Virus record (IMG/VR): IMGVR_UViG_3300042922_000906
Span: 40,054 to 104,053 of that record
Direction: 5' to 3' (one strand)
From: a virus
Taxonomy: Duplodnaviria > Heunggongvirae > Uroviricota > Caudoviricetes
DNA: 64,000 bases
Below the pieces are notes generated by a model, which was not told where the DNA came from, made no database searches, and saw nothing but the letters and a program-made list of their open reading frames with translations. The position numbers were made by a program, and so were the translations under genes. This document shows positions 2,048 to 49,440 of the stretch, piece by piece; the first letter of the stretch is position 1, and every line of letters starts with the position of its first letter.

Positions 2048-2204
2048 TCTATATTACATTAACTAAATAAAATCCAAAATTTGTTATTTAAATGTTAATT
2101 GTTTTATTTCTGCCCTCTCTTATCCAAAATACTAACTATTCAATCCCTATTATATGCTGTACAATAATTTTGTAAACACTAATTTAGAGAGGATTGCAGC
2201 AGAT

Positions 2205-2924
2205 ATGGAAAAAATTAAAGTAATCGTTGCAGATGATAATGAAGTAATTTTAGAAGTCATGAAAGAATTAATTAACGGGCAAACGGATATGGAGGTTATA
2301 GGCGAATATAATAACGGGGAATCGGCTTATGAAGCAATAATAAAAATGCAACCTGATGTTATTATTTTGGATATATTAATGCCTATATGGGATGGATTAG
2401 AAGTATTAAAGCAGCTAAGAAATAATTATAACAAGAAAATTACTAAAATAGTTTTTTCAAGTGAGGCAAAAGAAGTTCAAAGAAAATTGGCAGATGGTGT
2501 TTTAGATGATGTATATTACTTTACAAAACCCTTTAAATTTGAGTTGTTTATTGAAAGAATTAAAATGGCATATTATGAGAGCAGTAAAAAGGATGCTGAA
2601 CATATAATTCATGAGTTTTTAGAAGGACTAGTGTTAACTGAATCAGGAAAGAAATATATATCACAAAGTGTAATGCTTCTGATCAATGATAGAACTTTAT
2701 TAACCAAGGATTTTTGTACAATTATCGCCAACAAGGAAGGGACTACTTGGAACAATATTCAAAGAAAAATAAGATATTCAATAGAACTTGCTTATAAGAG
2801 TTCTGAAAGTAGTAAATTGAATACTGCATTTGGACAATCAACATTAGGAACATTTAAAATGGACTTAAATATCAAAACTATGTTATTACATTTTAGTGAT
2901 AAGGTAAGTAAAATGATGGCCTGA
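2205..2924 (+). CDS. spo0A: Spo0A-like response regulator (receiver domain plus Spo0A_C-like DNA-binding domain)
   Basis: From the ATG at 2205 the N-terminus reads MEKIKVIVADDNEVILEVMKELINGQTDMEVIGEYNNGESAYEAIIKMQPDVIILDILMPIWDGLEVLKQL. This parallels B. subtilis Spo0A MEKIKVCVADDNREL...PDVLVLDIIMPHLDGLAVLERL, including the phospho-acceptor Asp. The C-terminus IIHEFLEG...RKIRYSIELAY...AFGQST resembles the Spo0A_C core (IIHEIGVP...RVERAIRHAIEVAW...LFGYT). Confidence 0.7.
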   Translation: MEKIKVIVADDNEVILEVMKELINGQTDMEVIGEYNNGESAYEAIIKMQPDVIILDILMPIWDGLEVLKQLRNNYNKKITKIVFSSEAKEVQRKLADGVLDDVYYFTKPFKFELFIERIKMAYYESSKKDAEHIIHEFLEGLVLTESGKKYISQSVMLLINDRTLLTKDFCTIIANKEGTTWNNIQRKIRYSIELAYKSSESSKLNTAFGQSTLGTFKMDLNIKTMLLHFSDKVSKMMA

Positions 2925-10145: not shown

Positions 10146-10175
10146 ATTGACAGTAAACTGGTAAAAATATATAAT
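10146..10175 (+). promoter_or_regulatory. sigma-A-type promoter (TTGACA, 18 nt spacer, TATAAT) with an upstream TTAACTAAAATATTATAAAATAAAT element
   Basis: Consensus hexamers. The upstream AT element also recurs at 15281 and 16331. Confidence 0.5.
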
Positions 10176-10486: not shown

Positions 10487-11023
10487 ATGAAAGCAACTGG
10501 AATAGTTAGACGTATAGACGATTTAGGAAGAGTTGTAATACCTAGAGAAACACGGAGAGCATTAAGAATTAAAGAAGGAGATCCTCTGGAGATTTTTATT
10601 GAAGATGGTGGAGTAATATTAAAAAAATACAGACCATTTCAAGATTTAATGGAATTTTCAGAGAAGTACGCAGAGTCTTTACATAAAACCTCTGGACATA
10701 TTTGTTTCATTACTGATAGAGATACAATAATTTCTGTAAATGGTACATCTAAAAGAGATTTTCTTGAAAAACCTATTAGTGAGAAGTTGGAAAATATTAT
10801 TGATGAAAGACATTTGTTTATCACAAATACCGAACAGATAAATATAGTTAATGGTCAGAGCTTGAATTTTCATTCTATCATAATAAAACCAATTATGTCT
10901 GAAGGTGAAACCTGTGGTTCAGTAATACTTGCAAGTACAGTTAATAATATAGTTTTTGGAGAAGTTGAAATTAAACTTGTTGAAAATGCAGCCGATTTTT
11001 TAGGTAAACAACTAGAAGATTAA
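10487..11023 (+). CDS. spoVT: SpoVT-like regulator (AbrB-type swapped-hairpin N-domain plus GAF-like C-domain)
   Basis: The N-terminus GIVRRIDDLGRVVIPRETRRALRIKEGDPLEIF is the AbrB/SpoVT DNA-binding fold. Total length 178 aa with a C-terminal sensory domain, matching SpoVT architecture. Confidence 0.75.
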   Translation: MKATGIVRRIDDLGRVVIPRETRRALRIKEGDPLEIFIEDGGVILKKYRPFQDLMEFSEKYAESLHKTSGHICFITDRDTIISVNGTSKRDFLEKPISEKLENIIDERHLFITNTEQINIVNGQSLNFHSIIIKPIMSEGETCGSVILASTVNNIVFGEVEIKLVENAADFLGKQLED

Positions 11024-15397: not shown

Positions 15398-16300
15398 ATG
15401 AAAACTTTTTATGACAAATTTAAATCATACAATAAACCGATCTACGAAAATAAAAATTGGATTGATATGAAAGAAGTATCCAGACTAGTTAATTTAGCCA
15501 AAGGTAATCGAAATACTTCTCAATTTCTAACAGATATGAATTTGACATGTGAAACAGAACAAATTATTGATATGATAAATGGCCGGTATAATTCTTGTAT
15601 AAGACTACATCACTTGAAAAAGATTGCAAAAGCATCTGAAGGAAGAGTGGATTTTGATCAGCTAAATGCTATATTTAAATTTATGGAAAATAATTCTTTG
15701 GATGAATTAAAGAATATTAATATCGAGCGTAGTGATATTTGTCAAGTTAATCTTGGCGAAGCGCTTGACAATGAGCATGGTGGCATAAAGATGTGCGTGG
15801 TTATTTCAAATAATAAAGGAAATGGTTCAAGTGCAACTTTTCAATTAATCCCTTTGTCTTCATCTATCGGGAAAAATTACATTCCTTCACATGTGCCTGT
15901 GGGTTTGGAATCAGGAATATTAAAACCTTCTGTAGCAATGATTGAACAACTTAGAGTTAAAACAAAGGCAAGTCTTTTATTTGATGGTGAGATAATTAAA
16001 GTCGGAAAAGTATCTGAAGCAACCATGATAAAAATAGAATCAGCGATTAAAAAGCAGTTTGGTATGATTAGTCTTAATTTTAATCCAAGATTTGCGGAAG
16101 AAATGGTAAGAGCAATATTAGGAGTTATGAATGTAGTTGAAGATGATGATAATCTTGTTATAGCTAAAAACCTCTTATGGAAAGATCTTGAAGCTTATTG
16201 TGCAGATTATGATAAGGATGCCAAATCAATTTTTAATGAGTTTACAACTAAAATTGCGCGCGGTGAACCTGTTTTTAAGAGATTCTGTCTTGTCGGCTGA
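15398..16300 (+). CDS. MazF/PemK-fold endoribonuclease-domain protein with N- and C-terminal extensions
   Basis: The central region GDICQVNLGEALDNEHGGIKMCVVISNN...FQLIPLSSS...PSHVPV parallels the MazF core (GDIvlvdF.P..GsEq.g.RPavVls...vvPiTs). Confidence 0.5.
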   Translation: MKTFYDKFKSYNKPIYENKNWIDMKEVSRLVNLAKGNRNTSQFLTDMNLTCETEQIIDMINGRYNSCIRLHHLKKIAKASEGRVDFDQLNAIFKFMENNSLDELKNINIERSDICQVNLGEALDNEHGGIKMCVVISNNKGNGSSATFQLIPLSSSIGKNYIPSHVPVGLESGILKPSVAMIEQLRVKTKASLLFDGEIIKVGKVSEATMIKIESAIKKQFGMISLNFNPRFAEEMVRAILGVMNVVEDDDNLVIAKNLLWKDLEAYCADYDKDAKSIFNEFTTKIARGEPVFKRFCLVG

Positions 16301-18815: not shown

Positions 18816-19052
18816 ATGATTAATAAAATGTATTACACGATTATGGATGATTGTGGAGAATATACAGATGATTGTGGGGTTTATAGTATTAAGGGCGTTT
18901 ACACTTATCATAGTAGAAAACGATATGATGACGGTAAAATATTACTGGCTACCACTAAAGAAATGGCTGAAAAATGGAAGGATGCGTTGGAGAAAGATAT
19001 TCATAAGGTTGGGTTGATTAGAAAGTTTGAAATTGTTGAGATAGAGATATAG
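18816..19052 (+). CDS. hypothetical protein
   Basis: ORF of 78 aa with a GGGGA SD. Confidence 0.35.
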   Translation: MINKMYYTIMDDCGEYTDDCGVYSIKGVYTYHSRKRYDDGKILLATTKEMAEKWKDALEKDIHKVGLIRKFEIVEIEI

Positions 19053-19080
19053 AGATATGAAAATACATAAGGAAGTGAAA

Positions 19081-19686
19081 ATGATATATGTTTCTTTGAT
19101 ATGTTTAATTTTTATTGGAGTTTACTCAGCCAACTATTCATTAAATTCAAATAGCACTCTTAAACACAATATTATAATAGATGAACATATAAGAGAAAAA
19201 ATTAATTATTCAAACCAAATTTTAATAAAAGAATTTGAAATTCGACAACTCAAAATCAATAATTCCAACCTAACAAAAGAAGTGAATAAGTTAAAAGAAG
19301 AACATAAACAATTTGAAACGTCAAGAGGAGTGATTGATAATGGCTATAAGGTGAAAGTTACAGCTTATACACTCTCGGAAGATTCTTGTGGTAAAAGTAA
19401 ACTACATCCTGAATACGGAATTACGGCATCAGGATACAGTCTTAAAGGACAGACACTAGAGACAGCTAGAACAATAGCAGTAGACCCAAAGGTTATACCA
19501 ATGGGTAGTAAAGTTAGAATTTTATTTAAAGACAAAGAATTCAGTTATCTTAACGGAGAATACACAGCAAGAGATACAGGGAGATTGATTAAAAATAATA
19601 AAATTGATCTGTATTATGGAGAAGAAAATGATAATGAGGCTAGACTATTTGGTGTAAGAGAAGCCTATATTGAAGTAATTAACTAA
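19081..19686 (+). CDS. secreted 3D-domain protein (YuiC/YabE-like cell-wall-binding or lytic-transglycosylase fold)
   Basis: Signal peptide MIYVSLICLIFIGVYSA. The 3D-domain segment reads KVKVTAYTLSEDSCGKSKL...GYSLKGQTLETARTIAVDP...YTARDTG...IDLYY. The start is set at the ATG behind the ATACATAAGGAAG motif. Confidence 0.65.
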   Translation: MIYVSLICLIFIGVYSANYSLNSNSTLKHNIIIDEHIREKINYSNQILIKEFEIRQLKINNSNLTKEVNKLKEEHKQFETSRGVIDNGYKVKVTAYTLSEDSCGKSKLHPEYGITASGYSLKGQTLETARTIAVDPKVIPMGSKVRILFKDKEFSYLNGEYTARDTGRLIKNNKIDLYYGEENDNEARLFGVREAYIEVIN

Positions 19687-19726
19687 GTAATAGAATATAA
19701 GGTCAAAATCTGTCGAACGATTGTTC

Positions 19727-19755
19727 TTTTATATTATTGACAATGTTAAACTACA
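19727..19755 (+). promoter_or_regulatory. sigma-A-type promoter (TTGACA, 17 nt spacer, TATAAT)
   Basis: Consensus hexamers with the conserved spacer ATGTTAAACTACAATAA. Confidence 0.55.
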
Positions 19756-19811
19756 ATAATATAATATAAATATAACCAATCAAAACAGCAAGTTAAAGCG
19801 CAAGAAAGGAT

Positions 19812-20177
19812 ATGGTGAATTATATGGAAAAACTATTTAAATGTATCGTGTGTGGAAAAATTTTTGAGGGGGTAGATGCAGAAGAAAAATGTGATACCCA
19901 TGAAAAAAATTGCCAAAAAACTATTTATTTTAAAGATGATTTTAGTAGTGAGGTTATAAGCTATAAGAATACAGTTAAGTTTGACTATGCCGAAGAAACA
20001 AAAAGAAACCAATGTCATGTTTTAAAATGCGATGTACCAAGATTGGGAAGTAAATTTGAAGGTAAAAAAATAGAATTTAATGTCACCGATAATGGTTTGG
20101 AAAGTATAATAAAGTGTCTTGAACCAGAGGCATATGAAAGGATTATGGGGACTCAAAGGAAGGAAGATGAGGAATGA
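19812..20177 (+). CDS. zinc-finger protein (CxxC...CDTH...C)
   Basis: CIVCGKIFEGVDAEEKCDTHEKNC is the visible zinc-binding arrangement. Confidence 0.4.
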   Translation: MVNYMEKLFKCIVCGKIFEGVDAEEKCDTHEKNCQKTIYFKDDFSSEVISYKNTVKFDYAEETKRNQCHVLKCDVPRLGSKFEGKKIEFNVTDNGLESIIKCLEPEAYERIMGTQRKEDEE

Positions 20178-20213
20178 GAATTTAAAGCGTGATTTTATCA
20201 GGAGGCTATTTGA

Positions 20214-20414
20214 ATGGAAACAATTATATTCTTTGAAGTTGAACCGAAATGTATAAACCAACGATATAGAATAAGAGAGTCAGCAGAAACATGTTGTAGA
20301 TTTTCAGGTAATATATGCAGAGATGGAAATTTACGTTGCGGAAAATATAGTGAAAATCTTAATGAAGGAAAAACAATTGAGAACAAAAATAGAAAAGATT
20401 GGTGGACAGTATAA
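20214..20414 (+). CDS. hypothetical Cys-rich protein
   Basis: ORF of 66 aa. Confidence 0.3.
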   Translation: METIIFFEVEPKCINQRYRIRESAETCCRFSGNICRDGNLRCGKYSENLNEGKTIENKNRKDWWTV

Positions 20415-20450
20415 AATCTCTATTTTAAAGAAAAAGAAAGTGATAATAAC

Positions 20451-20948
20451 ATGATAAAAATAGTTGAAGGAAATATATTAGATGCAAATGAAAAACTGAT
20501 ATGTCAGCAAGTGAACTGTCAGGGTGTAATGGGTTCTGGATTAGCAAAGCAACTTAAAGATAAATATCCAAAGTTATATCCTTCATATAAGAAATTTTGT
20601 GAAGGTTGTAAAGATAATAATCCAAGAACATTATTGGGAGAGTTTCAAACTGTGCCTATGCCTGATGGAAAAGTAATAGTTAATTTGTTTGGTCAATTTG
20701 ACTTTGGAAGAGATAAAAAATATACAGATTATGATGCATTAAGAAATAGTTTAGAAAATATATTATTTGTTGCAAAAGAATGTGGAAATGATTCAATTGC
20801 TATTCCTTATAATCTAGGCTGTGGATTAGCTGGTGGTGATTGGAATATAGTTTACAAAATAATTGAAGATGTGTTTCAAGATTATGATGTAACTATTTAT
20901 TACCTAATAGGTAATAAAAATCATGTTTTAAGCAGAGGATTAAAATAA
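20451..20948 (+). CDS. macro-domain protein (ADP-ribose binding / ADP-ribosyl hydrolase family)
   Basis: Begins GNILDANEKLICQQVNCQGVMGSGLAKQLK, the N..(V/A)N..G.MG.G(L/I)A signature of macro domains. Length 165 aa. Confidence 0.65.
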   Translation: MIKIVEGNILDANEKLICQQVNCQGVMGSGLAKQLKDKYPKLYPSYKKFCEGCKDNNPRTLLGEFQTVPMPDGKVIVNLFGQFDFGRDKKYTDYDALRNSLENILFVAKECGNDSIAIPYNLGCGLAGGDWNIVYKIIEDVFQDYDVTIYYLIGNKNHVLSRGLK

Positions 20949-21409
20949 TGGACAAGATTAAATGTATTTTTATGGGATGGATAATGTTTAAGCATTATTA
21001 TTGTAAAACAAATAGCGATTATAGTTATTCTAGAGGTTTTTATTACACTGATAAACCAACAATTGCAGATAATGCATGGTTTAAAAAAGAAGAAAATTTC
21101 TATAAATGTGAAATTGAAAAGCCACCATTTGAAATAAATGAAAAAGTGTATATTCCAGAATTAGACCTAACTGTGCTTATAACTGATAGAATCAGATCGA
21201 TAGATGGTTCAGTGGTATTCAAAACCAATTATGAGATTAAAATTATTGAAGATGAGTGTACTATTGAGTCATTGGCAGAAGCGACAAAAAACATTGAACA
21301 AGAAACGGGAAAGTATAATGATTGGATAAGTTCTCAAAAATCTAGCTATAAAAAAAGTGGTATCAATTTTGGATGTAAAGTAAAAGAATATATAAAAACT
21401 GTGTTTTAA
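20948..21409 (+). CDS. hypothetical protein
   Basis: ORF of 153 aa overlapping the previous stop. Confidence 0.35.
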   Translation: MDKIKCIFMGWIMFKHYYCKTNSDYSYSRGFYYTDKPTIADNAWFKKEENFYKCEIEKPPFEINEKVYIPELDLTVLITDRIRSIDGSVVFKTNYEIKIIEDECTIESLAEATKNIEQETGKYNDWISSQKSSYKKSGINFGCKVKEYIKTVF

Positions 21410-21422
21410 ATGGAGGAAGATT

Positions 21423-21737
21423 ATGATCAATCCATTACCTTGGAAATTTTCAAAAAGTATTTCTGGAGAACAAAAATATAATGTTATATTTGATGTAAAT
21501 GATAAAGAATGTGTGTTACATGTTAATGACTATGAATTATCAGATGAAAATGCTGAGTATATAATTAAAGCTTGCAATATGTTTCCCGAAGTTGTAGAAG
21601 CTCTTAGAATGGTGTTACATGATACAATGAATGGTCATTTATCAGATAAGGCTGAAGAAATCATGTGTAGAGCTTATAGTGTATTGAATAAGAACAATAT
21701 AAAAGTACCAAATTTTTATGATAAACAAAACATTTAA
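21423..21737 (+). CDS. hypothetical protein
   Basis: ORF of 104 aa with a GGAGG SD. Confidence 0.35.
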   Translation: MINPLPWKFSKSISGEQKYNVIFDVNDKECVLHVNDYELSDENAEYIIKACNMFPEVVEALRMVLHDTMNGHLSDKAEEIMCRAYSVLNKNNIKVPNFYDKQNI

Positions 21738-21927
21738 AAAACTGTGTTTTTATTGTGGCGGTAATGTAAAGCTATTTTACTTAATTAGAATTTGGAATGA
21801 GTGGAATCCTCCATTGCGATATGAAAAGGTCGTATGGGATGAAAAGTTTGTGAAGAAGTTTGAATGGATATAAAAATCACTTTTAATTATCACAAAATTA
21901 AAATATTATAAAATAAAAGGAGATTGA

Positions 21928-22377
21928 ATGATGGATAAATTAACAAAATCACTTAAATGTTCTTTCTGTGGTAAATCTCAAAACCAAGTTAAGAGATTGA
22001 TTGCGGGGCCGGGTATTTATATATGTGATGAATGTGTAGATTTGTGTTCAGAAATTATTGAAGAAGAATCTGATATAAAAGTAGATGATTTACTTGATGA
22101 TGTACCGACTCCAAGCATAATTAAAAAATATCTTGATCAGCATGTTATAGGACAAGAAGAAGCTAAAAAATCATTAAGTGTAGCTGTTTATAATCACTAC
22201 AAAAGAATAAATTCTTTAAAGAAAAAGAAAAAATCAGATGATGTAGAAATTCAGAAAAGCAATATACTCATGATCGGTACTACGGGTATAGGAAAAACTG
22301 AATTGGCTAGAACAATAGCGAAAATGCTAAAACTTCCCTTTGCTATTGCTGATGCCACTACGTTAACGGAAGCAGGG
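21928..22377 (+). CDS. clpX: ClpX ATP-dependent protease ATPase subunit, exon 1 (zinc-binding domain plus Walker A)
   Basis: Zinc-binding domain [30 protein letters not shown] and Walker [17 protein letters not shown]. The frame ends ...[10 protein letters not shown] followed by TA, at the intron boundary. Confidence 0.8.
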
Positions 22378-23549
22378 TAAAGGTTTTAAAAAATATTTCA
22401 TATTTTATTCGCATTATTCAAAATTAAGGACGGTAAAGATATATAAGTGATATTGTAAACTATAATTCAGCTATGGAAGATTATATAAATAAACATTTGT
22501 CATTAAGCAAGTTAGCAGAAATTTATAAAATCTCTAGATATAAGCTAACAAAATTATTAAATAAGAATGGTATCAAGATTAGGAATCATAATATTGTTGA
22601 TGTGAACTATAAGGTTGATAATTGCTACTTTGATAAAATTAATACCGAATCAAAAGCGTATTGGCTTGGATTTATTTATGCAGATGGATGTATTAATACG
22701 AGTGGGAATAGTTTAAGATTTTCAATTGAATTAGCCGATTACGATTTTAACCATTTAAAAAAATTTAGAAAAGCAATTAAATCTAATCATCCAATTACTG
22801 AAAGACAAAATAGCAAAAGAAATACATGCAATATTTCAATTAATAGTCGAAACATTGTAAATAAACTAATAGACATTGGATGTGTTACAAATAAAACATA
22901 TAATGGATTTATAGACCCAAACATTTTAAAAACAACAGAAATGAAAATTGCTTTTATTAGAGGTTATTTAGATGGAAATGGTTATATTGACAAGGGTGAC
23001 AAGTATAGAATTGTATTCACATTACAATCAGAAAAATTGGTTGAAGATTTAAATATAATGATAAGAGAGTTAAAAATACATACAAGAATACAAAAAGATC
23101 AAGAATATTTTAGAATACATATTGAAAGAAAAAATGATTTTTATCAACTATTAAATCTAATATATAAAAATGCGAGTATATATTTAGATAGAAAATATGA
23201 AATATTTTTAAGAAGAACAATGCCGTTTGGTCAAGAAACTGACCAAATAATTAGTGCGAAATTAAGCTGGGAAGTCCTTCCAAACATGTACGAACATAAA
23301 GGTAATGTTTTAGGATAATCAGAACCGAAGGCTAATTTTAAAAGATTAGTCAGGGGCAGAGCATAGAGATTGAAATTATATATTCCATTAATATATAAAA
23401 TATAATATCTCCACGAGGTCGCACTACCTAACCTTATATTATAAAAATTTATGGAATTTGATGATTAATATAAGTATGGTAAAAAGATATGCCGAACAAG
23501 TTTGTAATGAACTTGAGGTAAAGATAAAAAGCTTTACGATAACAAATTG
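22378..23549 (+). mobile_element. group I intron interrupting clpX (approx. 1172 nt; 5' exon ends in U, intron ends in G)
   Basis: Joining 22377 to 23550 gives ...[41 protein letters not shown], matching the ClpX consensus across the junction. The insert carries a free-standing LAGLIDADG ORF and about 230 nt of 3' structured sequence. Confidence 0.6.
22473..23318 (+). CDS. LAGLIDADG homing endonuclease (double-motif, intron-encoded)
   Basis: Two dodecapeptide motifs are present: WLGFIYADGCI and IRGYLDGNGYI. Length 281 aa. Confidence 0.75.
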   Translation: MEDYINKHLSLSKLAEIYKISRYKLTKLLNKNGIKIRNHNIVDVNYKVDNCYFDKINTESKAYWLGFIYADGCINTSGNSLRFSIELADYDFNHLKKFRKAIKSNHPITERQNSKRNTCNISINSRNIVNKLIDIGCVTNKTYNGFIDPNILKTTEMKIAFIRGYLDGNGYIDKGDKYRIVFTLQSEKLVEDLNIMIRELKIHTRIQKDQEYFRIHIERKNDFYQLLNLIYKNASIYLDRKYEIFLRRTMPFGQETDQIISAKLSWEVLPNMYEHKGNVLG

Positions 23550-24352
23550 ATGTCGGAGATGACGTAGAAAACATATTGTTAAAACTTCTGCAAGCAGCGG
23601 ACTTTGATGAAGAGCTAGCACAGAAAGGGATTATCTATATTGATGAAATTGATAAAATTGCACGAAAAGGTGAAAATACATCAATTACAAGAGATGTTAA
23701 TGGTGAGGGAGTACAACATGCGTTATTAAAAATACTTGAAGGTACAGTAGCAAGAGTTCCACCACAGGGAGGACGTAAACACCCTCATCAGGAGTGTATT
23801 GAAATAGATACAAGTAATATTCTGTTTATTTGCGGTGGTGCATTTGATGGTATTGATAAGATACTTTCTCAAAAAAATAAGACTGAAAAGAGTATAGGGT
23901 TTGGTGCTTCAGTAAGCAGTAAAATAGAAAACAATAATACAAATTTATTAGAAACAATTGAACCTCATGATTTTGTGAAGTATGGTTTAGTGCCAGAATT
24001 AGTTGGAAGATTACCTGTGATAACTACACTGCAACCATTAGATAAAAATGCGTTATTAAGAATATTAACTGAACCTAAAAATGCAATAGTTAAGCAATAT
24101 CAGAAATTGCTTAATATTGACAATGTTAACCTCGAATTTGAAAATGATGCACTGGAGGAAATTGTTAATAAAGCAATTGAAAGAAAGACTGGTGCTAGAG
24201 GTTTAAGAGGAATACTGGAAAGTGTTATGAAGAATGTTATGTTTGAAATCCCCGATATAAAAAATGCAAAGAAAGTTGTTATTACAAAAGGTGTTGTATT
24301 AGGGCTAGAAAATTCAGTTATTTATGATAGTAAGAATAAAGTTATTGCATAG
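23550..24352 (+). CDS. clpX: ClpX ATPase, exon 2 (Walker B / sensor / C-terminal domain)
   Basis: [10 protein letters not shown] (Walker B), [11 protein letters not shown] and [11 protein letters not shown] all match ClpX. The exon starts at the A of the codon TAT. Confidence 0.8.
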
Positions 24353-24365
24353 AAAGGATAAAAAT

Positions 24366-24917
24366 ATGAAATCAGCTATATCTATTAATCAAAGTGATAA
24401 ACATGCAATCAAAACTTTAAGCGACCACCTTTATGACCTGATTATCAATTTGGATAAAAAGTTTAATAAAATCATATTTGTTTGTATCGGTACAGATCGA
24501 AGTACAGGCGATTCGCTTGCTCCAATAGTAGGTAGTAAAATACATAAGAAATACAATGTTTATGGAACTCTTGAAAATCCAGATCATGCAAAAAATCTAG
24601 AAGAAACTATGAATATGATTGATACTAAAAACAATCTCATTATTGCAATTGATGCCTGTTTAGGTAAGTCGGAGAATGTTGGTAATATTAATATTCATAA
24701 CGGTTCGCTAAAGCCTGGTTCTGCTGTTGGCAAAGATTTAATGGCGGTTGGTGATATTAGTATATCTGGAATAGTTAATTTCAGCGGCTTTATGGACTTC
24801 CTTATACTACAAAATACTAGATTAAGCATTGTAATGAATTTGAGTAATATTATATCAAAAGTTATTTGTAAAACTATGAAGCAAGTAAATAAGGAAAATA
24901 TAAAAAAGAGTGCTTAA
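24366..24917 (+). CDS. yyaC: YyaC-family sporulation protein (GPR-like protease fold)
   Basis: IIFVCIGTDRSTGDSLAPIVG...GTLENPDHAKN...IIAIDACLGK...GSLKPGSAVGKDL...ISISGIVNFSGFMDFLILQNTRLSIVMN aligns along its whole length with B. subtilis YyaC. The start is set at the ATG behind an AAAGGA SD. Confidence 0.8.
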   Translation: MKSAISINQSDKHAIKTLSDHLYDLIINLDKKFNKIIFVCIGTDRSTGDSLAPIVGSKIHKKYNVYGTLENPDHAKNLEETMNMIDTKNNLIIAIDACLGKSENVGNINIHNGSLKPGSAVGKDLMAVGDISISGIVNFSGFMDFLILQNTRLSIVMNLSNIISKVICKTMKQVNKENIKKSA

Positions 24918-24950
24918 AATGTACCTTTTATAGAGTAGAGGAAAAATATC

Positions 24951-25412
24951 ATGATATTTTGGTTGGTTGTAAGTGGAATTTATTATTTTTTAGGATGGAT
25001 ATTATTTATTTACTATTATAGTGATTTTTATAGTGAAGAATGGGCTGTGGGTTCTTTTTTTGGTAGCTTGTTTGGTTTGTGGTTTTTATGGTTTATCCCT
25101 TACGCTTTGAAAAACTTTAAAGGAAATAAGCCTAAAATGAATTTCGAAAAATTATTTAATAAATATAAAATTATTGTAGAAAACCATAAAAAATCAAATG
25201 AACAAGGGATTATATTTTATACAGATTACGATGGGAATGCTTATGTTTATTATAATTTTCCCGAAGAAGATTATTGCGCAATGATTGAAATAAATACTAA
25301 AATTATTAATTCCAAGACTGTAGAGAAAATTATTTCTAAATTAAAAAAGTGGGCAGATAATGAGAATAGGAAAAACGTAAGGATTAGAGTATATAAAAAT
25401 TTAAGTCTTTAA
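24951..25412 (+). CDS. hypothetical membrane-anchored protein
   Basis: Two N-terminal TM helices. Length 153 aa. Confidence 0.35.
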   Translation: MIFWLVVSGIYYFLGWILFIYYYSDFYSEEWAVGSFFGSLFGLWFLWFIPYALKNFKGNKPKMNFEKLFNKYKIIVENHKKSNEQGIIFYTDYDGNAYVYYNFPEEDYCAMIEINTKIINSKTVEKIISKLKKWADNENRKNVRIRVYKNLSL

Positions 25413-25446
25413 AATACATCATTAAGTTCCTAAAAGCGAGGTAAGT

Positions 25447-25764
25447 ATGTTAGACACATATTCAAATACAAATCTAAAAAACAATAATAATTTCAATTAT
25501 AATATTAACGCTGTTAGTGGAACTATTAGAAAATCTCATTCCAAAAGCATTATTACGATGGTTAAATTAGATGATACACTTCTTGATAAAATAAATCCAA
25601 AATATACAACAATAGAAAGAAGATATTCAAGCAAAAGTGATTATGATGGATATAATCATGCGATTGATTATCCTGTAGTTATATTACAGGTGATGTTATG
25701 TGGAGAAAATAAATGTCTTGTAGAGTTTGTTAAACAAGAAAATTTTGAAGATGAGGGATATTAA
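25447..25764 (+). CDS. hypothetical protein
   Basis: ORF of 105 aa. Confidence 0.3.
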   Translation: MLDTYSNTNLKNNNNFNYNINAVSGTIRKSHSKSIITMVKLDDTLLDKINPKYTTIERRYSSKSDYDGYNHAIDYPVVILQVMLCGENKCLVEFVKQENFEDEGY

Positions 25765-25814
25765 ATACAAGCCTATAATTCTTCAATGCTAAAATATTAC
25801 AATAGGAGGTATGT

Positions 25815-26717
25815 ATGTACAAAACTGTGAAAAGATTAGATAGTAGTGAGGGGAATGTATGGAAATACATATTTGAATTTGAAAATGCAATAGCTGAAGC
25901 AGTGTTATATAAATATGATTCTTTTAATGAACGTACTGTTATATGTTGTTCAGTGCAAAGTGGATGTCCAATAGGTTGTACATTTTGTGGTACAGGTAAA
26001 AGATTTATTAGGAATCTATCAAATGAAGAAATTCTTAGTCAAATTACTTATATACTAAAGGATATGAACATTGAAGGAGTCAATAGTTCTAGTAAAAAAT
26101 TTCAGATCATGTTTATGAGTATGGGAGAACCAATGCTTAATTTTAAAGAAGTAGAAAGGGCTATTAGAAGTTTGCACATATTATATCCTAATGCTGACCT
26201 ATTAATGTCTACTATTGGTGTAGATAATGATGATGTTTTCAGAAATATTATAGAATTATCAAAAGATATACATAAGGTAGGGTTACAATTTTCAATACAT
26301 AAATCATGTGATGCTGATCGAAATGAATTAATACCATATAAAAATAAGATGAGTTTATACAAGCTAAGAGATGCAGGATTATTATGGTGGAAAGAGACAG
26401 GTAGAAAACCGTATTTAAATTATTGCGTAGATGGAACAAATAATAAGCATAGTGATTTTTTAAAATTGTATATGAATTTTAGTCCACTTGCATTCTGCTT
26501 TACATTTAGTGTGGTTTGTAGTGCCGATGAAACAATGAAAAAAGCAGGATTTAGAAATTTAGAATCAATTCAAAAATTTCAAGAATATTTCTTAGACAGA
26601 GGATATGATTGCAGAATATTTAATCCAGCAGGTCAAGATGATATTGGTGGAGGATGCGGACAATTATTTTATGTGCAGCAATGGTTAAAGGACTATAAGA
26701 AGACCGATAAAATATAA
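25815..26717 (+). CDS. radical SAM RNA methyltransferase of the RlmN/Cfr family (N-terminally minimal)
   Basis: CCSVQSGCPIGCTFCGTGK parallels the RlmN CVSSQVGCALACTFCSTGQ cluster. MFMSMGEPMLN parallels VFMGMGEPLLN. The C-terminal DDIGGGCGQL parallels DDIDAACGQL, the methyl-carrier Cys. At 300 aa it lacks the roughly 75-aa N-terminal accessory domain. Confidence 0.65.
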   Translation: MYKTVKRLDSSEGNVWKYIFEFENAIAEAVLYKYDSFNERTVICCSVQSGCPIGCTFCGTGKRFIRNLSNEEILSQITYILKDMNIEGVNSSSKKFQIMFMSMGEPMLNFKEVERAIRSLHILYPNADLLMSTIGVDNDDVFRNIIELSKDIHKVGLQFSIHKSCDADRNELIPYKNKMSLYKLRDAGLLWWKETGRKPYLNYCVDGTNNKHSDFLKLYMNFSPLAFCFTFSVVCSADETMKKAGFRNLESIQKFQEYFLDRGYDCRIFNPAGQDDIGGGCGQLFYVQQWLKDYKKTDKI

Positions 26718-26734
26718 ATTTTAAAGGCTGAAAT

Positions 26735-27316
26735 GTGAGGTGTAAAATGGATTATAAAGCAATGTGTATTCATCAAGGATACGTACCTTCAACTTGTACT
26801 ATGGAAGGTCAAATGTGTTGGTTACTAGTTAATAGTCAAGGAGATCCATGTAAAGGATGTAATGAAAATAGAAGTAAATGTGGCGGCAGGTACGCTCCTT
26901 ATGAAAATAAAGATTATAGATTTATGTGCTTCTTAGATAAGTGGGATGAGATAGATAGAAAACAACGTGAAGAGAATGAAAAGAGACATAGAGAAATAAT
27001 CGAAAAAAGAAAAGATGGACATTTAAATGGATATACTAGAACCATTTTAGAAGTTAAATGGGAATTATTACATAAGAATAATCATATCGAAGTATTAGTT
27101 AAAGATTTAGTAGATGAAAAGGTTTATATTGCGAAATGTAGAGACATAGTTGAGATGTTACATGTCATAAAGCTTTCTTGTAGTAAATACAATGTGGAAC
27201 AAATTCATGTAGAAACTACTGCATGGGGACAATCTATTTATAATGAATTAAATAATAACATAAAAGACATAGATATTGTTCCATTAAAATATGTAAAAAT
27301 GGATTTATTTAATTAA
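26735..27316 (+). CDS. Cys-rich hypothetical protein
   Basis: ORF of 193 aa. Multiple Cys residues cluster in the N-terminal 60 aa. Confidence 0.35.
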   Translation: MRCKMDYKAMCIHQGYVPSTCTMEGQMCWLLVNSQGDPCKGCNENRSKCGGRYAPYENKDYRFMCFLDKWDEIDRKQREENEKRHREIIEKRKDGHLNGYTRTILEVKWELLHKNNHIEVLVKDLVDEKVYIAKCRDIVEMLHVIKLSCSKYNVEQIHVETTAWGQSIYNELNNNIKDIDIVPLKYVKMDLFN

Positions 27317-27337
27317 ATTAAAGGAGAATATTATAAT

Positions 27338-27679
27338 ATGAAAAGTTTTAATAATCTAAGTGAAGAAGAAAAATATTTATTTGAAGCGATAATGTCTGCT
27401 AGAAAAGTTCAAGAATTTCTTTGGGGCGAATGTAATGGTAGGTGGGGAATAGAAGAATGGAAAAGAATGTTCAGAAAAAGAATGGTTAAAATTGATGATA
27501 TTGATGTTAATAACCCTCATGCATTGGTTGAACTTAGAAAAAGAATTCTTCAAAATACAGCTTTAGGGATTGCATTGTTGAAAATTATTGATAATCCTGA
27601 AATTATGGTTAATTTGAAGAATGATCATTGTACTATCCCTTCTAACTTACCCCAATATGCAGAATCAACAAACCAATAA
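27338..27679 (+). CDS. hypothetical protein
   Basis: ORF of 113 aa with a GGAG SD. Confidence 0.35.
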   Translation: MKSFNNLSEEEKYLFEAIMSARKVQEFLWGECNGRWGIEEWKRMFRKRMVKIDDIDVNNPHALVELRKRILQNTALGIALLKIIDNPEIMVNLKNDHCTIPSNLPQYAESTNQ

Positions 27680-27706
27680 AAGCAACTGTTAGGTACTGGA
27701 GAAACT

Positions 27707-28012
27707 ATGATAATAAAAATCAAAAGCTTATTTTACAAGTGGAATGACTATTCTAGATGTCCAAAATGTAAAAGTAAAAAACAGAAAGAAACAAATATTG
27801 ATAGGCTTGTCGGATACGGTTCTGAAATTTTGGAATATGATATATTTTGTGCGGAGTGTGGACAATATTTAAATCATTATGCTTTTGGGCATTTTGAAAT
27901 ACCTGAAACCAAAACAGAAAATTTAAAATGGCTATGGTGTTGTGGTAAACCTGTAAGCATTAAAGGATACATAAGGACGATAATTGAAAGTATTAAGGTA
28001 ATTTTTGGATAA
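27707..28012 (+). CDS. zinc-ribbon protein
   Basis: CPKCKSK...CAECGQY is the visible zinc-ribbon arrangement. Confidence 0.35.
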   Translation: MIIKIKSLFYKWNDYSRCPKCKSKKQKETNIDRLVGYGSEILEYDIFCAECGQYLNHYAFGHFEIPETKTENLKWLWCCGKPVSIKGYIRTIIESIKVIFG

Positions 28013-28044
28013 TAAGAATATTATAAAGGAGTTGATTATTATAT

Positions 28045-28302
28045 ATGACAGATGCATTTAAATTTAATCTTACGTGTTTTAAAGAATCGGGAAAGTATTA
28101 CAATAAAAATACAATAGATGTACCAAAATATTTTACGTCCATGTACCAAGTTACAGATTGCATCAGACTTATGATTAATGCAGGTCAATTATCACCAAAC
28201 TTTTATTACCTTGTAGACTCAGATACAGTTGATTTTGCGTACCCTTGCCTTATTACTATAGACAGTATCAATACACCTAGAATACCATATCAAAAAATAT
28301 AG
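28045..28302 (+). CDS. hypothetical protein
   Basis: ORF of 85 aa with an AGGAG SD. Confidence 0.3.
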   Translation: MTDAFKFNLTCFKESGKYYNKNTIDVPKYFTSMYQVTDCIRLMINAGQLSPNFYYLVDSDTVDFAYPCLITIDSINTPRIPYQKI

Positions 28303-28313
28303 GAGGAATTAGT

Positions 28314-28463
28314 ATGACACATGGACAAGGCATTCAAAAGGCAATTTTAATTATCGAATCTCAGAAGGGTTTTGCAAAACTTTCAAAAAACAGTGAGAAA
28401 GCACTTGCACAGCTTGATGAAATCATAGAACATCTTAAGTTTGTAGGTCAGTTTTATATGTGA
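28314..28463 (+). CDS. small hypothetical protein (49 aa; not in the track)
   Basis: AGGAGG SD lies 7 nt before the ATG. Confidence 0.3.
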   Translation: MTHGQGIQKAILIIESQKGFAKLSKNSEKALAQLDEIIEHLKFVGQFYM

Positions 28464-28495
28464 TGCAAAAGAAACCAATAGAATTATCGTTTTTA

Positions 28496-29068
28496 TCAAA
28501 AAATAAATGGAATAATCTTATACTTACATTTTTTCATATATTCTTTGTATTCTTCTCCATAAAAATCAATTAATTTATCTTCCTCTTTGTCAACCATTAA
28601 CCGGCTAACAGGAATATACATAGCGACTATACCCACAGCTAACAAATATGGAGATGCTAGAATAAATCCAATACCTTCAAAAAAGAAACTAGAGTATATA
28701 GGATGACGCACAATAGAGTAGACACCCGAAGTAATTAACTCAGCATTTGTGTTAGGAGTGCTTGAATCTGCCCAGTTGGTGTTTAATTGCTTTAAAGCGA
28801 AAAAATGAAATGCAAAAGCTATTCCCAATATTATGAAAGAATGTGTAATATGTTTATAAAAAAATGAATATGTAAATTTATAACAAAGATATAGATTTGA
28901 TGTGACAGCAACTATTATAACTATGATTAGAGCTATATCTTTCCAAGTGGTTTTAGTTTTAGATTGAGCTTTTTTCTTATTCTTGTACGAAGTCATGAAT
29001 TGGGTAACAACCATAGCGATCATTAATGTCAAAGCAATTAATCCTAATACAATATCCAACATAATCAT
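28496..29068 (-). CDS. membrane methyltransferase of the ICMT/PEMT family
   Basis: Multi-TM protein with the RHPIY motif and a C-terminal E...E region typical of isoprenylcysteine carboxyl / phospholipid methyltransferases. It is the only well-supported minus-strand gene. Confidence 0.55.
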   Translation of the reverse strand: MIMLDIVLGLIALTLMIAMVVTQFMTSYKNKKKAQSKTKTTWKDIALIIVIIVAVTSNLYLCYKFTYSFFYKHITHSFIILGIAFAFHFFALKQLNTNWADSSTPNTNAELITSGVYSIVRHPIYSSFFFEGIGFILASPYLLAVGIVAMYIPVSRLMVDKEEDKLIDFYGEEYKEYMKKCKYKIIPFIF

Positions 29069-29217
29069 TACCTCTAAATTGAAATTTATGTGTATTATAT
29101 TAAACTACAACCTCAATGTCAAATAAATACATAAAAATTCCTCTTTATTTATTTAAAACAATGACATATAATAATATCATAAAACGAACAAATGTTCGAA
29201 AATAGGAGCTGATTAAT

Positions 29218-32476: not shown

Positions 32477-32704
32477 AATAATATAGTATATCGTTTGTAG
32501 GTAACGTATAACCTTCAATCCATAAGGATGTAACAAAATGGCTAATGTGCATGACTTTGACTCATGAAATAGAGTTTCGATTACTCTCATCCTTGCCAAT
32601 AACATCGTGTAATTGCTGTTGTGCTTTGTTATTCATGTGTACCCTCCTTTTTTTGAAAGCGTTTGTAGGTATCGCTTGAGAAATCAGAATAACCTTCAGA
32701 TATA

Positions 32705-32780
32705 TTGCGGATTAGCCAAGTAGGTAAGGCAGTAGATTTTGATTCTATCATACTCAGGTTCAAGTCCTGAATCCGTAGCC
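32705..32780 (+). tRNA. tRNA-Gln (anticodon UUG), CCA encoded
   Basis: Hand-folded cloverleaf. Acceptor stem TGCGGAT/ATCCGTA with a U1:A72 pair and G73, as in bacterial tRNA-Gln. U8 is present. The D-arm has GG in its loop. Anticodon stem GTAGA/TCTAT with loop TTTTGAT (U33, UUG, A37). T-arm TCAGG-TTCAAGT-CCTGA. The 3' CCA lies at 32778-32780. Confidence 0.8.
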
Positions 32781-33156
32781 AATTAATTTAATAAAGGTGA
32801 CTGAAAGTTTAGGGTTAAGGCTTAGACAAAACCAATAAACGATGATGAGTAACGAGGGTGACAGCTTATATGTCTTGAATATACCTAAAGTGGGTATCTA
32901 GGAAGATTAGTTGAAATGATACATACTACTTCCAAAAACTATAATAATTTGACGTGATACTGTGTCTAGGATATTTTGAATATTACTAGAATCGTGAAAA
33001 TTGGAGTTACTAATTAAGTCGGCCGAAGTAGTCAATATAAGTGAACGTGCTATATAAGCTAAATGGTTCTACCTGTATTAAATTAAATACCATAAAATGG
33101 ACATTTTAATGTGTGATTAAATAAAATATTATACATAAGGAAGGAAATAGAAAAAA

Positions 33157-35164: not shown

Positions 35165-37210
35165 ATGGAAATTAAAAATTTTAAAGCAGCATTACAAGAG
35201 AACTTTAAACAGATGACAAAAGAAGCCACACACTTATTCGAGGTATCTTTAGATAAGGATGAACTCTGGAATCTTTACTTGGATAGTTTTCCAGAAGGTA
35301 CAAACGAAATTTATCGAGAAAGAAGGGAATATGATTGCAGTGCTTGTAGACAGTTTATAAAGAATATTGGAAATGCTGTTGTAATCAAAGACAATGAAGT
35401 TAAAACAATTTGGGATTTTAATACAAATGGCACAACGTTTCAACCTGTAGTTGATGCTCTGTCAGCATTTGTAAAGTCTAAAACAATTACAGACATTTGG
35501 GTAAGCAAACTTAAGAAGATTGGAACAGATAAAAACTTTGAAGAGTTGGTAGATGGAAAAATAATTGAATGGCAGCATTTACATTTAGAATTACCAGATA
35601 AGTTTGTTGATAGAAGTGGTAGGTCTGAAGGAGACATTAAAGGTAGCTTTAGAGATACAAGAAATGTTTTCAAGAGATCATTGGATGAAATCACAGAAGA
35701 CAGCATCCTTACTGTACTAGAACTCATATCATCAAATACTTTATACAAAGGCGAAGAGTGGAAAGGTGTATTGACTGAGTTTCTAAAATATAAGAAAGAA
35801 TATGAAAAGTTACAGACCTTAAAAGAAAAGGATAACTATACTTGGGAACAGTCTGTAAAGGCAGGTATTGCTATAGGAAGAATAAGAAATCATAGCATAG
35901 GTACTCTTTTAGTAAATATTAGTGAAGGTATAGATTTGGATACAGCAGTAAGAAAGTATGAAGTTATTGTTGCTCCATCAAACTATAAAAGACCAAAAGC
36001 AATATTTACACAAAAGATGTTGGAAGATGCTAGAAAGACTCTAGAAGATTTGGGTTATATGGATTCATTGAGTAGAAGATATGCTACTTTAGATGATATA
36101 ACTGTAAATAATATATTATTCTCAAATAAAGATTCAGCTAAGAGAATTAGTGGTTCTGATATCTTTGCTGAAATGTCTCAAAATGTTGTTTTGAATCCGA
36201 AGAAATTTTCCAAGGCAGAAGAAGTCTCAATTAATCATTTTGTTGCTAATATCTTACCGACAGCAAAAGAGATTGAAATATTCTTAGAAAATAGACATTC
36301 AAACAATATGGTTTCATTAATTGCACCTGAAAATAAAAATAGTAAGACCATGTTTAAATGGGATAATGGTTTTAGTTGGGCATATTCAGGTAATATAACT
36401 GATAGTTCAATGAAGGAAAATGTTAAGTCTGCTGGAGGTAAGGTGGATGGAGTGCTGAGATTTTCTATTCAATGGAATGATGTAGAAAATGATAGAAATG
36501 ATTTGGATGCTCATTGTATTGAGCCAAATAGAAATGAAATTTATTTTAGTCGTAAAGTTAATCCATATACAACAGGTCAATTAGATGTTGATATTATTCA
36601 TCCTGTAAATGGAAAGGCAGCCGTTGAAAATATAACATGGACTGACAAAAACAGAATGTCGGAAGGTATATATAAATTCTTTGTAAATTGTTATTCAAAT
36701 AATGGTGGAAGAAGTGGATTTAGAGCTGAAATCGAGTTTGATGGTCAAATTTATTCTTTTGAGTATAATGGGGAATTAAGAGGTGGAGAAAATGTTCAAG
36801 TAGCAGAAGTAACATTTAATAAAGGCACTGGATTTTCAATTTTGGAAAAGTTACCATCAAATGTTTCTTCTAAAGAAGTTTGGAATCTCAAAACAAATAA
36901 GTTTGTTCCTGTGTCGGTAGTTTGTTATTCCCCTAATTATTGGAATGAACAGGATAATATTGGTCATAGACATTATTTTTTTATGCTTAAAGATTGTATT
37001 AATCCAGAGAAGCCAAACGGATTCTATAATGAGTTTTTGAAACAAGAATTAGTTGAACATAAGAGAGTATTTGAAGCTCTTGGAGGGAAAATGGCTGTAA
37101 AGGATGTTAATGATCAGTTATCAGGAATAGGCTTTAGTTCAACTAAAAGAAATGATTTATTAGTAAAAGTCAAAGGTCAGACTGAAAGAGTATTTAAAAT
37201 AAAATTTTAA
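35165..37210 (+). CDS. large hypothetical protein (681 aa)
   Basis: Long uninterrupted frame behind an ATACATAAGAGAGG motif. No family recognised by eye. Confidence 0.5.
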
Positions 37211-48609: not shown

Positions 48610-48636
48610 TGATTTTATGTGACGAAGGGAGAAAAT

Positions 48637-49419
48637 ATGATAAAAGTTAATGGTTTTCTTGTTGGAAACGAGTGTTTTCCTAATAATGAAAGGATATTAA
48701 AAATAAATGATTTTGGTGATAAATACTTTGATATTGAATTTAAGTACGAAACAGATATTGACATTTCTATTTTAATAATGGTCAAGAAGTACCTAGATGA
48801 TACATATCCTAATTCATACATACATTTAATAATGAAGTATGTTCCATACTCAAGAATGGATAGAAAAATTGAAGGATATATGTTCAGCCTTAAGTATTTT
48901 TGTCAGCTAATAAATGATTTACATTTTAGTGATGTTCAGGTATTAGATACACACTCAAATGTAACAACTGCTTTACTTGATAGATGTACGGAAATGAGCA
49001 TTCAAGATAATATCAGTAGAATATTTTCAAATATTCATATTGATTATGTTTTTTATCCTGATAACGGAGCAATGAAAAGATATAGTGAAATTCTTAAAAT
49101 TCCAGTACCATACTTCTACGGAAATAAGAAAAGAAATCTTAATACTGGTGAAATTGTCGGCTATGAATTAGTAGATTGTCCAGACATTAAGGATAAAGAT
49201 ATTTTAATAATAGATGACTTGTGTGCAAAAGGATTTACATTCTATAATGCAGCACAAAAGTTAAAAGACAATGGAGCTAATAATATTAATTTATATGTAT
49301 CTCATTGTGAAAATTCTATTTATCAAGGACAATTACTGAAATCTGATCTAATTAAGACCATATTTACAACTGATTCAATTTTAACTGATTGGTCAAGTAA
49401 AATATTATATAATGTCTAA
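48637..49419 (+). CDS. ribose-phosphate pyrophosphokinase-family enzyme (Prs-like; candidate ADP-ribose pyrophosphokinase of a phage NAD+ pathway)
   Basis: KYVPYSRMDRK parallels the Prs segment IPYFGYARQDRK. ILIIDDLCAKGFTF is the C-terminal PRPP-binding loop. The start is set at the ATG behind a GAAGGGAG SD. Confidence 0.65.
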   Translation: MIKVNGFLVGNECFPNNERILKINDFGDKYFDIEFKYETDIDISILIMVKKYLDDTYPNSYIHLIMKYVPYSRMDRKIEGYMFSLKYFCQLINDLHFSDVQVLDTHSNVTTALLDRCTEMSIQDNISRIFSNIHIDYVFYPDNGAMKRYSEILKIPVPYFYGNKKRNLNTGEIVGYELVDCPDIKDKDILIIDDLCAKGFTFYNAAQKLKDNGANNINLYVSHCENSIYQGQLLKSDLIKTIFTTDSILTDWSSKILYNV

Positions 49420-49440
49420 CAAGAATAAGAGGAGAAAAGA

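Follow-up and report, generated by a model that had tools for sequence, protein, structure and literature searches.

A phage-encoded YyaC-family protein, in an operon with clpX, looks like an intact relative of the spore protease GPR

What might a bacteriophage do with a gene that in bacteria belongs to the forespore? Spore formation is regarded as a defence of bacteria against phages, and sporulation genes are turning up in a growing number of phages. The question is raised here by 64,000 nucleotides of DNA from a virus of the class Caudoviricetes (positions 40,054 to 104,053 of the IMG/VR virus record IMGVR_UViG_3300042922_000906; this whole stretch is referred to below as the window), in which an open reading frame (ORF) encodes a homologue of the spore protease YyaC. 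In the reading that we favour, with moderate confidence, the product is an active aspartic endopeptidase under phage control, which cuts forespore or spore proteins resembling small acid-soluble spore proteins (SASPs) and alters dormancy in the phage's favour. If YyaC does remove SASPs or other forespore proteins, a phage would thereby have a concrete means of keeping DNA active in a cell that enters or leaves dormancy, and the phage protein would help to settle what YyaC does in bacteria.

A first-pass annotation, made from the letters of the window, had called positions 24366-24917 a near full-length homologue of B. subtilis YyaC, to be checked against the TIGR02841/DUF1256 hidden Markov models. 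Both profiles gave a strong match, where a weak or partial one would have spoken against the call. The 183-residue product matched Pfam DUF1256 (PF06866) with an E-value of 3.1e-55 and 186.5 bits (cut-off 27) over profile positions 2-163 of 164, and NCBIfam TIGR02841, 'spore protease YyaC', with an E-value of 2.6e-54 and 183.1 bits (cut-off 84.9) over positions 2-140 of 140; both scores lie above the curated cut-offs with full-length coverage, and the alignment agrees with them. The product also matched PHROG 8268, 'spore protease' (E-value 3e-33, covering 23-176 of 181), and its gene lies in a phage genome. That the ORF encodes a YyaC-family protein is therefore almost certain.

The longest reading frame at this place is 24324..24917 on the plus strand. 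We place the start at ATG 24366, because it is preceded at 7 nt by a ribosome-binding site (RBS), AAAGGA, and because it is the start of the 183-aa product in a public protein record (P0001), which is identical to the window protein (100% identity and coverage). The interval first proposed is thus exact. Thirteen nucleotides separate this ATG from the clpX stop codon (TAG, 24350-24352). The conserved motif blocks quoted earlier required one correction: CIGTDRSTGD (residues 40-49), AIDACLG (94-100) and LKPGSAVGKDL (115-125) stand as given, whereas in the last block, GFMDFLILQNTRL, GFMDF and LQNTRL are separated by two residues, not one.

Is the protein likely to be an enzyme? In an alignment of 48 sequences (the window protein and 47 homologues), the window protein retains every one of the 26 invariant columns, among them C40, G42, D44, D49, H74, D96 and K123; at the near-invariant Val73 it has an Asp (context NPDHAKNL). 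An AlphaFold2 model built on this alignment had a mean predicted local distance difference test score (pLDDT) of 91.5 and a predicted template modelling score (pTM) of 0.89. When the model was compared with the PDB by Foldseek, the top matches were structures of the germination protease GPR, 7c4x and 1c8b (E-values 3e-5 to 1e-4, probability 1.00, TM-score on the query 0.63-0.66); next came the hydrogenase maturation proteases HycI (5zby) and HybD (5ija and 1cfz). The GPR-type fold attributed to YyaC by the first-pass annotation was thus recovered, and the predicted structure has the alpha/beta fold of the HybD/GPR type. In the BFVD library of viral structures we found no structure related to YyaC at E <= 0.001.

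A single-sequence phmmer search of the PDB gave a chance match only, so that a profile search and a fold search were needed to reach GPR. In the profile search of PDB sequences, YyaC CIGTDRSTGDSLGP pairs with GPR GLGNLSVTPDALGP, and YyaC IIAIDACLG with GPR IIAIDALAAR; Asp49 (of TGD) falls on the 'TPD' motif of GPR, and Asp96 (of AIDA) on its 'AIDA' motif. Judging by this alignment, Asp49 and Asp96 are candidate catalytic residues of YyaC. Their counterparts in GPR we take to be D127 and D193, which Carroll and Setlow, in 2005, are said to have found essential for activity. Since the invariant residues are kept, the predicted fold is GPR-like and both aspartates align, the phage protein looks like an active enzyme and not a decayed copy. 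It is, however, not GPR itself. The core fold and both aspartate motifs are shared with that enzyme (TIGR01441; 1c8b, 7c4x), but phage YyaC is half its size (183 versus ~370 aa), has no zymogen pro-peptide and shows a structure-based identity of 13%; we rejected the GPR assignment, as the TIGR01441 profile gave 21.3 bits against a cut-off of 120 and matched part of the core only.

Of the 50 YyaC loci that a pattern scan of IMG/VR yielded, several sit close to the ends of prophages predicted in isolate genomes; there, host flank is a real risk. The window gene, too, might come from a host chromosome flanking a prophage, or from a chimeric assembly. Yet yyaC lies more than 24 kb from one end of the window and 39 kb from the other, and for more than 20 kb on each side it is flanked by same-strand phage-family genes of uniform composition. 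The GC content is 26-32% across the window, GC skew is positive in every 2-kb bin, and nearly all ORFs of at least 90 aa are on the plus strand. PHROG matches stand on both sides of the gene (ATP-dependent DNA ligase, RNA ligase, NAMPT and a DnaB-like helicase), alongside other phage-family matches (an MrpR-type recombinase and phage-only families of unknown function). Altogether, 60 other larger ORFs match 61 PHROG families (E <= 1e-8), several HNH endonucleases and a virion structural protein among them. The identical gene order was moreover assembled independently in another sequencing run (locus L001), and the public protein record is recorded on a contig of 140,832 bp. Host flank, which the first-pass annotation had named as the finding that would undo it, and a chimeric assembly can be discounted almost entirely. 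By megablast, 20-30 kb of the window had no match among deposited phages; the phage is therefore not a close relative of any sequenced phage.

How does the window protein relate to other copies of YyaC? Homologues turned up by tblastn in 15 of 50,697 deposited phage records (30-49% identity), among them Paenibacillus phage Lilo, the phiCD211/phiCDIF1296T/LIBA2945 group, Bacillus phages G (gp219) and KLEB27-3, Lysinibacillus phage LC76P1 and human-gut contigs. A large protein search returned more than 6,000 homologues, the closest of which are metagenomic (52-71% identity). The nearest clearly chromosomal yyaC, with genes for Rnf, a SpoIIE-type phosphatase, GlnA and flagellar proteins as neighbours, encodes a product 57% identical to the window protein; the best copies in species-representative genomes, from Ruminiclostridium and uncultured Bacillota metagenome-assembled genomes, reach 46-54%, and chromosomal copies overall 46-57%. 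In a neighbour-joining tree, calculated without support values, the window protein groups with P0002, L007, L005, P0005, P0007, P0012, L006 and P0011, metagenomic copies in phage surroundings, and the chromosomal copies are separate. The phage clade also has substitutions not seen in bacteria: N122G (10/10), G52A (8/10) and PF90-91NL. Because of this separate grouping and the clade-specific substitutions, we conclude that YyaC has diversified within phages as a long resident, and not as a recent pick-up.

In most respects the phage protein resembles the bacterial ones (B. subtilis YyaC, C. acetobutylicum YyaC, C. perfringens YyaC1 and YyaC2). Like them it is a single domain of ~180-200 aa, with the same predicted fold and all family-invariant residues, and it is 46-57% identical to clostridial copies. 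It differs in a slightly shorter N-terminus, in the substitutions listed above and in the Asp at Val73. The genes differ also in their setting, the bacterial one being a forespore gene under the control of sporulation sigma factors, whereas the phage copy is paired with clpX behind a sigma-A-type promoter.

This pairing was seen in six related lineages of metagenomic phages (window/L001, L088, L005, L089/L090, L006 and L032), in each of which clpX lies directly 5' of yyaC. In L005, L006 and L032 the ClpX genes are complete (457-595 bits against cut-offs of 359 and 370.75), and the spacer between the two genes, both gene ends being present, is 10-14 nt long with an RBS-like purine run. In L088 and L089/L090 ClpX is clipped by the contig end and is 60-67% identical to that of the window. 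All four full-length phage ClpX proteins keep Walker A and B, GYVG and the IGF/LGF loop for docking to ClpP. No ClpX was found within the fetched flanks of bacterial yyaC at 26 GTDB loci and L002-L004, nor within those of the other IMG/VR yyaC loci, and in the deposited phage records examined (phiCD211, phage G and Lilo) clpX does not adjoin yyaC, the neighbours being different. A literature search for phage-encoded ClpX gave no match, and tblastn with an approximate B. subtilis ClpP sequence detected no ClpP in the window.

Three members of the YyaC clade, L007, L092 and L093, have no upstream clpX. Upstream of yyaC there is instead a sigma factor with a SigF/SigH-like region 2 in L007, an ORF with a YtxC domain in L092 (3496-4474; with a sigma-like ORF downstream) and YopX in L093. 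A sigma factor with such a region 2 adjoins yyaC in L007 (303-1478), in L023 (3574-4475) and in L092. In C. perfringens, mutants in YtxC and YyaC2 have a common germination defect.

Among known phages, the closest parallels to this arrangement are found in the phiCD211/phiCDIF1296T/phiCD5763-like phages of C. difficile, which likewise carry a YyaC-family gene in a non-structural region of a ~130-140 kb phage of a clostridial spore former. The YyaC identity is 38%, and their copy always pairs with a PrpC/NinI-like phosphatase (PMC5786514), whereas that of the window pairs with clpX; both partners act in post-translational control. Close kinship with these phages was considered and rejected, as 50 kb of phiCD211 gave only four weak protein matches to the window. 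Bacillus phage G has both genes, for the spore protease gp219 (42% identity) and for a ClpX, gp258 (60% identity); these lie ~36 kb apart and are not adjacent as they are in the window.

When would the pair be expressed? The nearest perfect-consensus promoter upstream of clpX-yyaC matches the sigma-A/sigma-70 type (TTGACA-17-TATAAT) at 12 of 12 positions. Eight perfect TTGACA-N16-18-TATAAT sites occur in the window, at 10147, 13693, 15306, 19737, 29094 (minus strand), 31158, 46078 and 55457, against 0.26 expected from shuffled sequences (0 of 100 shuffles reached eight), and they mostly sit in gaps between the listed ORFs. Large lytic phages of Gram-positive hosts typically have such promoters at their early genes. 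Within 19000-29000 no terminator-like site was found, and the unit that holds clpX-yyaC is closed by a convergent minus-strand gene with a perfect promoter of its own (29094-29122). The promoter at 19737 is thus the likely start of an early transcription unit of ~8.7 kb that includes clpX-yyaC.

The first-pass annotation had described bacterial YyaC as a protein of the sigma-F/G regulon; indeed, yyaC is sigma-F-dependent in B. subtilis (PMC12700454), and its expression in C. perfringens is sporulation-specific and late (PMC9332280). Using crude consensus patterns for sigma-F, -G, -E and -K, we found no match within 450 nt upstream of the phage gene and no enrichment in the window. By its predicted promoter the gene does not belong to the forespore sigma-F/sigma-G regulon; such membership is not a defining feature of the YyaC family. 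From the perfect sigma-A-type promoter, with no terminator-like site and no sporulation-sigma consensus, we infer that this promoter is used and that the vegetative RNA polymerase of the host transcribes yyaC as an early gene. Vegetative-type early control would uncouple it from the forespore programme that governs bacterial yyaC.

What, then, is new at this locus? Phage YyaC is not: it is annotated in the phiCD211-like phages, Bacillus phage G and Paenibacillus phage Lilo, it forms PHROG 8268, and the 'spore protease' genes of the phiCD211-like phages have already been discussed (PMC10778935, PMC5786514). Its novelty is smaller than the first-pass annotation implied. New are the clpX-yyaC operon with its conservation across lineages, the separate clade of the phage copies (46-57% identical to bacterial ones), what looks like a change to early control of the vegetative type, and the presence in one phage of full-length Spo0A-like and SpoVT-like genes as well. 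The locus adds a well-documented example and a testable operon, not a new kind of system.

The bacterial proteins give some indication of what the phage enzyme could do. C. acetobutylicum YyaC cleaves SASPs with GPR-like specificity, according to Wetzel and Fischer (2015) as cited in PMC9332280, so that activity on SASPs has been reported for both YyaC and GPR. In C. perfringens, yyaC1 mutants form fewer spores, and the spores of yyaC2 mutants barely germinate (PMC9332280). The forespores of a B. anthracis yyaC::Tn mutant are collapsed, and the authors propose that the breakdown of forespore proteins sustains metabolic potential (PMC12700454). The role of the copies in phiCD211-like phages has been the subject of speculation only (PMC10778935, PMC5786514).

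We envisage phage YyaC as a catalytically intact, short GPR relative of HybD-like fold without a pro-peptide, carried by large phages of spore-forming hosts of the Clostridia type. It would be translated from the phage clpX mRNA, 13 nt downstream of clpX. With a perfect sigma-A-type early promoter as the probable start of the unit, the protease would be produced each time the early genes of the phage are switched on, whereas the host enzyme is made only in the forespore, under sigma-F/sigma-G. As substrates we infer alpha/beta-type SASPs as the most likely, or other forespore proteins. The benefit to the phage could be that SASP cleavage keeps DNA open to transcription and replication while a cell sporulates or germinates; alternatively, cleavage by YyaC might derail or redirect spore development. 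The Spo0A-like and SpoVT-like regulators of the phage would act alongside. The specific SASP-type mechanism we put forward tentatively, at somewhat below an even chance.

Several observations weigh against the favoured reading. No phenotype has been reported for yyaC in B. subtilis, and the in vivo substrates of bacterial YyaC are unsettled (PMC12700454). No SASP gene, which could have supplied a substrate from the phage itself, was found among the 46 small ORFs of the window (among its 60 larger ORFs, too, no SASP family occurs in the 25 listed of 34 family matches). The assignment of the promoter comes from consensus matching, and the adjacency of clpX and yyaC could be a gene order inherited within one phage family. 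Finally, SASPs are absent from vegetative cells, so that YyaC made early would be without such a substrate unless infection overlaps sporulation or germination.

Could the gene pair serve an end unrelated to spore proteins? clpX and yyaC may form a dedicated phage proteolysis and remodelling cassette with targets other than SASPs, in which case the descent of YyaC from a sporulation protein would be mere history. Such targets might be host regulators of the sporulation decision, host defence or stress proteins, or phage proteins, and ClpX would unfold or deliver substrates or control YyaC. The tight pairing in six lineages (10-14 nt), kept although ClpX is at 51-67% and YyaC at 47-71% identity, speaks for such a cassette; the absence of the pairing from the bacterial loci and deposited phages examined, the fixed N122G and G52A substitutions of the phage clade, and the constant association of phiCD211-like YyaC with another post-translational regulator (PMC5786514) point the same way. 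Against it, the phage ClpX proteins look like ordinary partners of ClpP, needing no new peptidase, because they keep the IGF/LGF loop; three members of the clade do without an upstream clpX; and shared ancestry could explain the adjacency, L032 being syntenic also for the flanking recombinase gene and for the radical-SAM gene downstream of yyaC. Nor do we know of any GPR-type enzyme that is gated by an unfoldase. We consider a cassette with non-SASP targets, the main rival of the favoured reading, unlikely. Distinctly doubtful, in our estimate, is a version nearer to the favoured reading, in which clpX-yyaC is a phage-specific, co-translated proteolysis cassette that is expressed outside the forespore programme and dismantles dormancy proteins, such as SASP chromatin or forespore regulators. 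ClpX would then work with host ClpP or directly with YyaC, which would cut alongside. If true, the cassette would let the phage replicate in sporulating or germinating cells, or control the completion of spores, and would be a previously undescribed anti-dormancy device.

Alternatively, yyaC might be a neutral passenger from a host, with no role in the phage life cycle. Phages of spore formers do acquire many host genes, and the closest bacterial copies are still 50-57% identical to the window protein. That is hard to reconcile with a diversified phage clade in which all catalytic and invariant residues are kept, with an operon position conserved in six lineages, with the lack of a close bacterial donor (the best genome copy is 54% identical) and with the independent acquisition or retention of YyaC by several unrelated phage groups; a mere passenger is very unlikely. 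It is highly improbable that the phage recruited the GPR/HybD fold for morphogenesis, with YyaC as its own prohead or scaffold protease. This would account for a protease gene in a large phage in whose window no head-maturation protease was identified elsewhere, but yyaC lies behind its sigma-A-type promoter among early, replication and auxiliary genes and not in a structural module, and the copies of phiCD211, phage G and Lilo are also found in replication or regulatory regions. The BFVD search, too, returned no viral relative, and no capsid protease of the GPR/HybD fold is known to us. We therefore retain the active endopeptidase under phage control as the favoured reading.

The clpX gene of the window is itself interrupted (Table 1). 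As plain ORFs its two pieces read 21928..22380 and 23576..24352. Joining U22378 to A23550 yields an uninterrupted ClpX of 417 aa, in which the GYVG pore loop (GYVGDDVEN) is restored; the 5' exon ends in U and the insert in G, as for group I introns. The homologues in five related lineages are without the insert wherever a contig covers that site. The 3' noncoding part of the insert resembles unannotated stretches of Aeromonas PS1-like phages and of Bacillus phages KLEB27-3 and BpSp, and the fold z-score of the insert is -2.58. Rfam, searched in E-value mode over 21800-24500, found neither a group I intron nor another family. On account of the splice logic and of the similarity to other phages, the insert is a probable group I intron.

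Table 1. Positions of the yyaC locus and of related features in the window
Feature	Position	Strand	Basis or remark
yyaC-like coding sequence, DUF1256 / TIGR02841 spore protease YyaC, 183 aa	24366..24917	+	Profile matches, alignment, model
RBS AAAGGA	24353..24358	+	7 nt 5' of the yyaC ATG, within the 13-nt clpX-yyaC spacer; sequence reading
clpX exon 1: C4 zinc finger and Walker A; ends ...ATTLTEAG plus the first base of a Tyr codon	21928..22378	+	
clpX intervening sequence, 1171 nt, probable group I intron	22379..23549	+	Splice logic
Free-standing LAGLIDADG homing-endonuclease ORF inside the clpX insert	22473..23318	+	
clpX exon 2: pore-1 loop, Walker B, IGF loop (KSIGFGA), C-terminal small domain	23550..24352	+	
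Perfect sigma-A/sigma-70-type promoter, TTGACA-17-TATAAT, 12/12 matches	19737..19765	+	Nearest perfect-consensus promoter upstream of clpX-yyaC
Perfect sigma-A-type promoter	10147..10175		~310 nt upstream of the SpoVT-like gene
Spo0A-like response regulator: receiver domain and Spo0A_C effector domain	2154..2924	+	
SpoVT-like regulator: AbrB-type N-terminus and SpoVT_C, full-length	10487..11023	+	

The first-pass annotation had counted YyaC as the third sporulation-associated homologue of the window, after Spo0A and SpoVT. Both of the others exist, with scores under the TIGR cut-offs. The Spo0A-like ORF has a receiver domain (residues 23-136, 70.2 bits) and a Spo0A_C domain (residues 159-229, 37.1 bits); it reaches 110 bits on TIGR02875, below the cut-off of 200, and by this measure is a divergent copy. 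The SpoVT-like ORF scores 230.2 bits on TIGR02851 (cut-off 235.9). One phage thus carries three sporulation genes, for a full-length Spo0A-like protein, a SpoVT-like protein and an intact YyaC. The further idea of the first-pass annotation, that the phage may intervene in spore formation or germination, agrees with this gene content. A survey of phage sporulation genes describes spo0A truncated to its effector domain, as well as spoVT (PMC10294663); a text search of that survey finds no mention of a protease or of GPR.

Two further ORFs lie in or next to the predicted clpX-yyaC transcription unit. Inside it, the radical-SAM ORF at 25815-26717 is a relative of the RlmN/Cfr RNA methyltransferases, although its 106 bits on TIGR00048 are well under the cut-off of 290. 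Just upstream of the promoter at 19737, a 3D-domain protein (19057-19686) resembles the stationary-phase survival protein SpsC and Ent cell-wall-binding proteins.

Elsewhere, the window carries auxiliary genes for NAMPT and a PRPP-synthetase-like protein (NAD salvage), two tRNA-Gln(UUG) genes, a 300-aa ORF with a PemK/MazF toxin domain, and a Macro domain (coordinates within this set are 48619-50925, 32524-32781, 15398-16300 and 20451-20948). Pfam matches among the other ORFs include AgrB, a ThsB-type TIR domain, peptide deformylase, Band_7 and 8xMP. A 681-aa ORF of unknown function (35165..37210) matches PHROG 1735 with 912.7 bits and has no Pfam domain. It is 66-69% identical to proteins of Bacillus Herelleviridae phages and has homologues in 529 phage records, including phages of Salmonella, Klebsiella, Caulobacter and Vibrio, an unusually strong conservation for a phage protein without a Pfam domain.

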